Positions 6,715-8,626 of a stretch of DNA of 10,190 nucleotides are shown here, one piece after another. The notes beneath the pieces were generated by a model. It saw nothing but the letters and a program-made list of their open reading frames with translations. It had not been told where the DNA came from and made no database searches. Made by a program: the position numbers and the translations under genes. The DNA is taken from the IMG/VR virus record IMGVR_UViG_2740892233_000002; one strand, written 5' to 3'. Positions within the stretch are counted from its first letter, which is position 1; the number at the start of each line of letters is the position of its first letter. The stretch is from a virus. Its lineage: Duplodnaviria; Heunggongvirae; Uroviricota; Caudoviricetes.

Positions 6715-8626
6715 TCACTCCTCCGGACAGCTTCGCTGCCAGTTCTTTCAGGGTTGGCCGGGTCGTCTCTTCTTCCCGGGATTTTGCCAGTACAGCCAGA
6801 TCAAGCTGCCAGCGTTGCACGGACACACGTAATGCCGCGTAGGCATACACCAGGCAGTCCAGCGCTTCGTTACGCCGCTTTTTGTTATCCCACAGCAGAC
6901 GCATCTTTCCTTTTTCTCACTTCTCCACCAGCTCTTCCGCCACCAGTTGCTGCGCCTCTGTCTGCGAAAAAATCTCCGGATCATCAGGAAAACGGATGGC
7001 ATACGACGTGGCTTCATCCGCAGGCGAGGGATCGGCTTTCATACGGGCATAGAGAATTTCTTTTGCGGTGTCCGTTCCCACTTCACACAGATACACGCCC
7101 CGCTGATTGCGGGTTTTTGGCATGGTGATCACCGGCTTGCCATAGACAGATGCGCCTTTTACCGGCAGCACCCGGAAAACACCGTGTTTTTTTGATCTCT
7201 GATAAACAATTTCACCATCGATCCCCCCGGTGTCCCAGCAGACACGGGAAATGGTCATTTCGGTGCCATCCGCATGGCGGTATTTTTTGTTGATCGCAGC
7301 ATCCACACGTAACAGCGTCCCTTCCTCATCGGGACGCCCCATAATGATGATTTTATCCACCAGAAAGGCTTCCTCTCCCGGAGCCCATCCCCAGACATAC
7401 ATCTCAAAACGGTTTCGCTGCGAGTCAATGCCCGCCGTCAGATAAACCACCCGGGCAGGCACCGCCGCCGTGTAACGCACCACCTTATCCATCAGTACCT
7501 GGTGATCGAGTTTTTCGCCCACGGCCTCTTCCCAGGTCTCGCCCAGCGTGGTGTTCACAAAGGTTTTCAGGCCGTTGGGATCTTTCAGTGCATCCAGCCA
7601 GTCATAGACAATCTGTACCCAGGTGGTGAACGGACTGTACGCCGTCCAGATATGGAACGTGATGGAGCGCGGCGGCGGAATTTCATCACCCCGGGCGCTG
7701 AAAAACGTCAGACCGTCACGGGTCCACATGCCCGTGTTTTCACAGATCCACCGCCCGTTGCTCTGGTCCAGTTCAGACTGATGGATCACGCAGCCATGAT
7801 GTTCACAGAGGTAGAAAACACTTTCAGGGCTGTCCTTCTCCCATTTAAGCCCAAAAGGCGTGGACTCATCGCCAAATTTCAGATACTGCTCCTCCCCACA
7901 GTGCGGGCAGGGCACATAAAAACGCATAAAATGCGCCGACTCGTTAGCGGCTTTTTCGATCTGGCAGGTGCCTTTGATTTTAGGCGTCGAGCCGCGAATG
8001 GATTTTGGCCACACCGACCCCTCAATACGCTTATCCCCCAGCAGGGTTGGCGAGCCCTCTTTTTCGACATCCGGCTCGAACGAGGAAAGTTCGTCATAGC
8101 AGACCACGTCCACGGATTTTTCACGGTAGTTTTTGGCGGCAGCGCCGCCCAGGCACCAGAAACCGACGCCCGATGAAAAGCGTTTCAGCGTGAGAGTATT
8201 GTCACGATGTTTACGCCCCAGCCATGGGGAAAGGTCTTTCAGGCATGGCACGTTCCGAATCGTCGCCTCCACGTGAGACTTCATAAAATCTTCAGCGGCA
8301 GAATCCGTGGGCTGAAAAAGCAGACTGTTTCGGGATTTATGCTCAATAAAATACCCGACCACCCCCAGCAACATCTTTGTATAGCCAACACGGGCAGATT
8401 TAATCAGATTAACAGTGCGGATCTGATCATTCCCCATGCTGTTCATGATGGCGATCTGGAATGGCAGCGTTTTCCATTCGCCCTCACCATATGAAGATTC
8501 TTTAGGCAGATAATAATTTTGATCAGCCCATTCAACTGGCGTCACCGGCAATGCCCTTATCAGGGGCTGTAATGCAGTTGTGACAGCGCTCATCATATTA
8601 TTCAGTTGTTGCTCTGATATATTCAT
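6698..8626 (-). CDS. A: Terminase large subunit gpA-like, 642 codons with an in-frame TGA at 6917..6919 (truncated at 569 aa unless read through)
   Basis: Probable ATG at 8624..8626 (MNISEQQLNN...; the track ORF extends to 8683). ...VEWADQNYYLPKESSYGEGEWKTLPFQIAIMNSMG...KSARVGYTKMLLGV...CPHCGEEQYLKFGD...HIWTAYSPFTTWVQIV...NTTLGETWEE...YLTAGIDSQ...CWDTGGIDGEIVYQRSKKHG... matches recalled lambda gpA (641 aa). ORFs 6917..8683 and 6698..6904 share a frame and together give the lambda length. Confidence 0.85.

Follow-up and report, generated by a model that had tools for sequence, protein, structure and literature searches.

In this study we analysed a stretch of viral DNA of 10,190 nucleotides, referred to here as the window, and found that its gene for the large subunit of the terminase is interrupted by an in-frame TGA codon at a position that encodes tryptophan in the great majority of its relatives. 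We consider it very probable that this is the result of a single nonsense mutation, a G-to-A transition that would have changed Trp570 from TGG to TGA in a terminase gene of the phage 21 type, that it arose in one lambdoid prophage (the iss-carrying prophage called copy A below) of the E. coli O26:H11 / O111:H11 lineage, and that the allele has since been vertically inherited within a decaying prophage that was gathering other lesions. According to this reading the gene is a pseudogene and not a recoding site, and the contig on which it is displayed is a chimera. The features concerned are collected in Table 1.

Table 1. Position and strand of the interrupted terminase gene, its parts, its neighbours and the scaffold gaps of the window, with the basis of each assignment.
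Feature	Position	Strand	Basis
TGA in frame at codon 570 of the large-subunit terminase gene, in place of a conserved TGG (Trp)	6917..6919	-	reading, alignments
Large-subunit terminase pseudogene of the lambda gpA / phage 21 gp2 type; 642 codons and a terminal stop, interrupted by one internal stop	6698..8626	-	alignment, Pfam, RefSeq
Truncated 569-aa product: ATPase domain full, nuclease domain cut at profile position 252/294	6920..8626	-	Pfam
3' remnant of the gene (codons 571-642 and the terminal stop), encoding the last part of the nuclease domain and the C-terminal portal-binding tail	6698..6916	-	alignment, Pfam
Intact gene for a gpW-like head-tail joining protein; overlaps the terminase gene at its end	6508..6714	-	
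Portal gene, intact; its product is the docking partner of the missing terminase C-terminus	4919..6511	-	
Terminase small-subunit (Nu1-type) gene, first 7 nt missing	8598..9100	-	
N10 scaffold gaps	131-140, 662-671, 9101-9110, 9526-9535	.	

On the minus strand the letters around the interruption read gtg gag aag TGA gaa aaa gga aag atg cgt ctg ctg tgg, where the TGA occupies 6919..6917, and translation of 6698..8683 accordingly gives AEELVEK, the stop, and then EKGKMRLLWDNKKRRNEALDC. Counted from the ATG at 8626, it is codon 570 that forms the internal stop. A second ATG, at 6904, opens a 68-aa ORF (6698..6904) that lies in the same frame as the upstream part of the gene, 219 nt (73 codons) from 6917. 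The initial annotation of this DNA, which was made from the letters without database searches, had reported the TGA and its translation together with the downstream ORF in the same frame, and had calculated that truncation at 569 aa costs 73 residues; re-reading and translating the minus strand bore out the first two observations, and the arithmetic of the third is correct. It had also placed the stop opposite a tryptophan of lambda gpA and had proposed a change from TGG to TGA as the simplest explanation. Both of these points are upheld by alignment, and the lambda sequence that it quoted is the right one. In global protein alignments the stop stands opposite W570 of phage 21 gp2, to which the window protein is 92% identical, and opposite W569 of lambda gpA, with 65% identity overall. 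At the DNA level, the 601 nt surrounding the stop match phage 21 and a group of lambda-like coliphages with 97.7-98.5% identity, and in these phages the matching sequence lies in the terminase large-subunit gene just upstream of a gpW-like gene. Since phage 21 and phage ECO111 5-P both have TGG where the window has TGA, the change amounts to one G-to-A transition. The ORF downstream of the stop, whose relationship to the gpA C-terminus had been named as one of the points on which the reading could fail, is homologous to it by alignment as well as by Pfam. The internal stop therefore falls at a codon that is a sense codon in the orthologues, within homology that is otherwise collinear, as expected of a pseudogene formed by nonsense mutation, and the gene order Nu1 - A - W - portal next to cos is present.

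The domain content of the two parts of the gene indicates what the interruption removes. The GpA_ATPase domain (PF05876) is present at residues 48-293 (profile positions 4-247 of 247, E = 8e-56). The match to GpA_nuclease begins at residue 323 and in the window product ends at residue 568, at profile position 252 of 294, while in an intact orthologue from strain B1_2 it extends to residue 601 and covers profile positions 3-286; the 68-aa orphan ORF in turn matches profile positions 263-287. The nuclease match is thus split at the stop, so that the end of the endonuclease domain, its last ~40 positions, is lost along with the C-terminal tail, and the 569-aa product does not contain a complete GpA_nuclease domain in one reading frame. 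The lost part had been described at the outset as including the portal-binding tail, and this is correct, but the end of the Pfam GpA_nuclease domain is lost too. The tail itself is still encoded, by codons 571-642, which are identical to phage 21, but it is cut off from the enzyme by the stop. At the opposite end of the gene (8450-8626), the first ~60 residues of the large subunit are strongly unlike those of phage 21 gp2, with the remainder being ~97% identical. This N-terminal block is a mosaic junction; the corresponding region of lambda binds the small subunit, and the small subunit is correspondingly different in length, with 169 aa as against 182 aa in phage 21.

Further features of the other genes should be noted. 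The Nu1-type gene lacks its first 7 nt because the piece on which it lies stops at an N10 scaffold gap. A 237-aa ORF at 8598-9311 on the minus strand, which is also called in the public record, runs through this gap and is therefore an artefact, the real small-subunit gene encoding 169 aa. The window also contains a second nonsense codon, at 1918-1920 on the minus strand, where codon 43 of gpFI (1672-2046) is TAG and the complete genomes compared have CAG. The 61-mer with this TAG was found in 0 of 810 matching complete-genome records; the codon reflects a private mutation or else a mistake in the window's assembly.

The interrupted gene has a counterpart in complete genomes. In the O26:H11 strain 11368 it is ECO26_RS16605 (NC_013361.1, 3113802..3115730), which is annotated by PGAP as a pseudogene with an 'internal stop', and the same call is made in the O111:H11 strain 88.0502 and in strain 03_3013. 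The stop-bearing gene is in this sense already known, as a pseudogene of a decaying prophage that is already flagged in RefSeq. The prophage of 11368, copy A, is lambdoid, carries iss and has an otherwise complete set of head and tail genes. Its gpJ is split by ISEc22, an IS66-family element, at the same place as in the prophage of 88.0502, which has further insertions of ISVsa5. Strain B1_2 has the copy-A SNP haplotype with TGG, and within the surrounding SNP block the stop site is its sole difference from the window; it follows that B1_2 represents either the ancestral state or a precise reversion.

Genomes that bear the TGA have two or more places that match this region. In the O26 strain RM8426 the second of these, copy B, lies at ~0.92 Mb in a heavily degraded prophage with nleH and cif. 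Its genes for the small and large terminase subunits, gpW and the portal are intact, and the genes from the protease through gpU have been lost by an ISEc22-associated deletion; strain 2313 has the same copy, at 0.91 Mb, with a full head module. The small subunits of copies A and B differ at two of 169 residues, and the DNA upstream, including cos, is 98% identical between them. The nleH and cif genes of this sibling prophage with the intact terminase (NZ_CP028116.1, 896967-937027) encode type III effectors. Among the many other lesions that it has accumulated are insertions of IS600 and IS3, a frameshifted replication gene and loss of the region from the protease to gpU, and its defects and those of copy A are complementary.

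The window itself is not a single continuous prophage. It is the entire record CCPX01000148.1 of assembly GCA_000752875.1, in which five pieces are joined by N10 runs, the main piece bounded by gaps being 672..9100. The pieces are collinear in none of the complete genomes with which they were compared, where they overlap or are inverted; piece 1-130, for example, corresponds to sequence upstream of cos but runs in the opposite direction. Compared with the main piece, copy A (11368) has 58 mismatches and copy B (strain 2313) has 14, and these are arranged in alternating blocks that imply at least eight haplotype switches over 3.4 kb. The block that contains the TGA is of the A type, which agrees with what the complete genomes show. 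There is no match at 100% to the window gene in the complete genomes, the best being 99.8%. Moreover, the 569-aa protein is encoded on five other draft contigs, and the mix of A and B SNPs is a different one in each of these, whereas the complete genomes have clean A or clean B haplotypes, and on these grounds chimeric assembly is to be preferred over gene conversion. The main contig is most likely a collapsed-repeat consensus of copies A and B, real gene conversion being the less likely origin of the mixed haplotype, and we do not favour the notion that the window is one real haplotype of a recombinant prophage. Over 194 nt, piece 9111..9525 duplicates the main piece apart from the eight A-type SNPs that it has, which indicates that both copies are present in the source genome. 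Because the main contig mixes the two, what might be called 'the prophage' of the window is not one physical element. This has a methodological consequence, in that near-identical prophage head modules collapse into chimeric contigs in short-read EHEC drafts, and long-read context is needed before a lesion found there can be attributed to 'the prophage'.

The ends of the pieces hold additional traces of this history. The main contig terminates inside gpU (672-739) at the exact point at which ISEc22 is inserted in strains B1_2 and RM8426, and the next piece (602-671) opens with 60 nt of the right end of ISEc22, followed by the remaining part of gpU, from which it follows that at least one copy in the source genome has a gpU disrupted by this element. 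The piece at 9536-9690 contains cosN and then a cosB region that diverges, past the conserved part of cosN, from the 21-type cosB of the O26 prophages and that we take to be lambda-like. The divergent cosB is a hint that the source genome has a third lambdoid prophage.

What the mutation in copy A would mean for the enzyme can be gauged from lambda. Translation would stop after residue 569, leaving a product with its ATPase domain and the greater part of its endonuclease domain; without the last ~40 nuclease positions and the portal-docking tail, such a product would be expected, from lambda genetics, to give no support to DNA packaging. The C-terminus of lambda gpA docks the terminase on the portal, and the mutation Aam42, which removes the last five residues of gpA, abolishes prohead binding and results in a very low phage yield (PMC4856287). 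If the loss of five residues is enough to abolish prohead binding, then a truncation by 73 residues should be null for packaging. The initial annotation went on to describe the prophage as packaging-defective unless the UGA is read through or the base is an error. This can be maintained for the gene in cis but not necessarily for the cell, given that related genomes have an intact copy-B terminase.

It is conceivable, although in our estimation improbable, that copy-A DNA is nevertheless packaged at low frequency, either because tRNA-Trp reads through the UGA, or because an intact terminase is supplied in trans by a sibling prophage, or both. UGA is the leakiest stop codon of E. coli, and as the lost codon is one for tryptophan, its reading by the near-cognate tRNA-Trp restores the wild-type residue, so that some full-length protein of wild-type sequence is to be expected. 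The codon that follows the UGA starts with G, which reportedly (Poole, Brown and Tate, 1995) makes for a weak termination context. Supply in trans is suggested by the second prophage of related genomes, with its intact genes for both subunits, by the closeness of the two small subunits and by that of the cos-proximal DNA. It also has a precedent in lambda, where wild-type terminase acting in trans rescues the A nonsense mutant Aam42 ~2000-fold (PMC4856287), and complementation is an established idea for the defective prophage pool of EHEC, developed in work on O157 Sakai (Asadulghani et al., 2009, PLoS Pathog, as cited in PMC5592225); the terminase is not mentioned in PMC5592225. Set against this, the 61-mer with TGA is exact in 0 of 19 matching records of isolated phages, each of which is one base off, the differing base having been read directly in phage 21 and ECO111 5-P only, where it gives TGG. 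Furthermore, gpJ is disrupted in both of the copy-A prophages that could be seen out to gpJ (11368 and 88.0502), and copy B of RM8426 is without the genes from the protease through gpU, so that particles would need parts of both prophages. Were packaging of this kind to occur, two individually dead prophages would jointly package and mobilise an iss-carrying element, a case of natural complementation within the defective prophage pool of O26/O111 EHEC that would bear on the continued mobility of defective prophages carrying virulence genes.

Of the records in the set of complete E. coli genomes (5426 genomes), 88 contain the TGA 61-mer without a mismatch, and the other 1756 that match it differ by one or two bases. 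For the phage 21 61-mer, which has TGG, 1828 of the 1856 records that match are exact; it had been suggested at the outset that related prophages be checked for this codon. Among public assemblies, 115 indexed blocks contain the 569-aa product in identical form, and the allele occurs in more than 100 independent drafts. Those TGA genomes that are named by serotype are O26:H11 or O111:H11, and the prophage context of the allele is the same in every complete genome inspected. To judge from these sequences, the TGA allele is real and is not a base-calling error. That the true base is a G, with TGA confined to the draft assembly of the window, is most unlikely in view of the 88 complete-genome records and the 115 blocks of independent assemblies, even though four N10 gaps break up the scaffold of the window, its main contig is chimeric, and the private TAG in gpFI indicates that its reliability at the level of single bases is imperfect. 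The caveat of the initial annotation that the base might be an error is thus excluded for the allele by the complete genomes, by the public assemblies and by the pseudogene calls of PGAP.

Least credible of all is that the TGA is a site of selenocysteine insertion, of regulated readthrough or of a split gene, with the 68-aa ORF being made separately from the ATG at 6904: a Shine-Dalgarno-like AAGGA a few bases 5' of this ATG, which is 12 nt past the stop, makes reinitiation conceivable, but the same AAGGA-ATG is present in the intact gene of phage 21 and so is no sign that a restart has been selected for; a segment of 76 nt that includes the UGA and the sequence past it has a folding energy no lower than that of shuffled controls (z = +0.72), and Rfam gave no match over the whole window, on which grounds a SECIS stem-loop directly 3' of the UGA or another structured recoding signal was rejected; and the homologues neither conserve the UGA nor replace it with Cys, having Trp (TGG) in 1828 of 1856 records as well as in isolated phages, lambda and phage 21 included, so that the stop is not a conserved feature and a conserved programmed stop is likewise rejected.

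A single nonsense mutation inherited within copy A is the reading that we favour. The lesion marks one dated stage of decay in a lambdoid prophage that is common to O26:H11 and O111:H11 EHEC and it could serve as a lineage marker; otherwise it is of little weight beyond bookkeeping.

The closest relatives of the interrupted gene among characterised systems are phage 21 gp2 (UMO75417.1) and lambda gpA (NP_040581.1), which at 642 and 641 aa have the same order of domains as the window gene and have Trp at the position of its stop; in the window, as in both phages, the gene lies between Nu1 and W-portal. A direct counterpart is ECO26_RS16605 of 11368, the same gene in the same type of prophage and with the same TGA, which over 601 nt around the stop shows 100% identity to the window. 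The 58 mismatches between the two over 8.4 kb are accounted for by the inclusion of second-copy alleles in the window contig. Lambda Aam42, a classical A nonsense mutant, resembles the window allele in that translation of the large terminase subunit ends prematurely towards the C-terminus, which in Aam42 causes a prohead-binding defect that is recessive and is rescued in trans (PMC4856287). However, Aam42 is a laboratory amber mutation that costs five residues and leaves cos nicking intact, whereas the window allele is a natural opal that costs 73 residues, including the end of the nuclease domain. Finally, the defective prophage pool of EHEC was described for O157 Sakai, while the present case concerns a prophage of O26/O111. 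The two are alike in having several lambdoid prophages per genome, each inactivated by different lesions, and in having near-identical modules that might complement one another or recombine.
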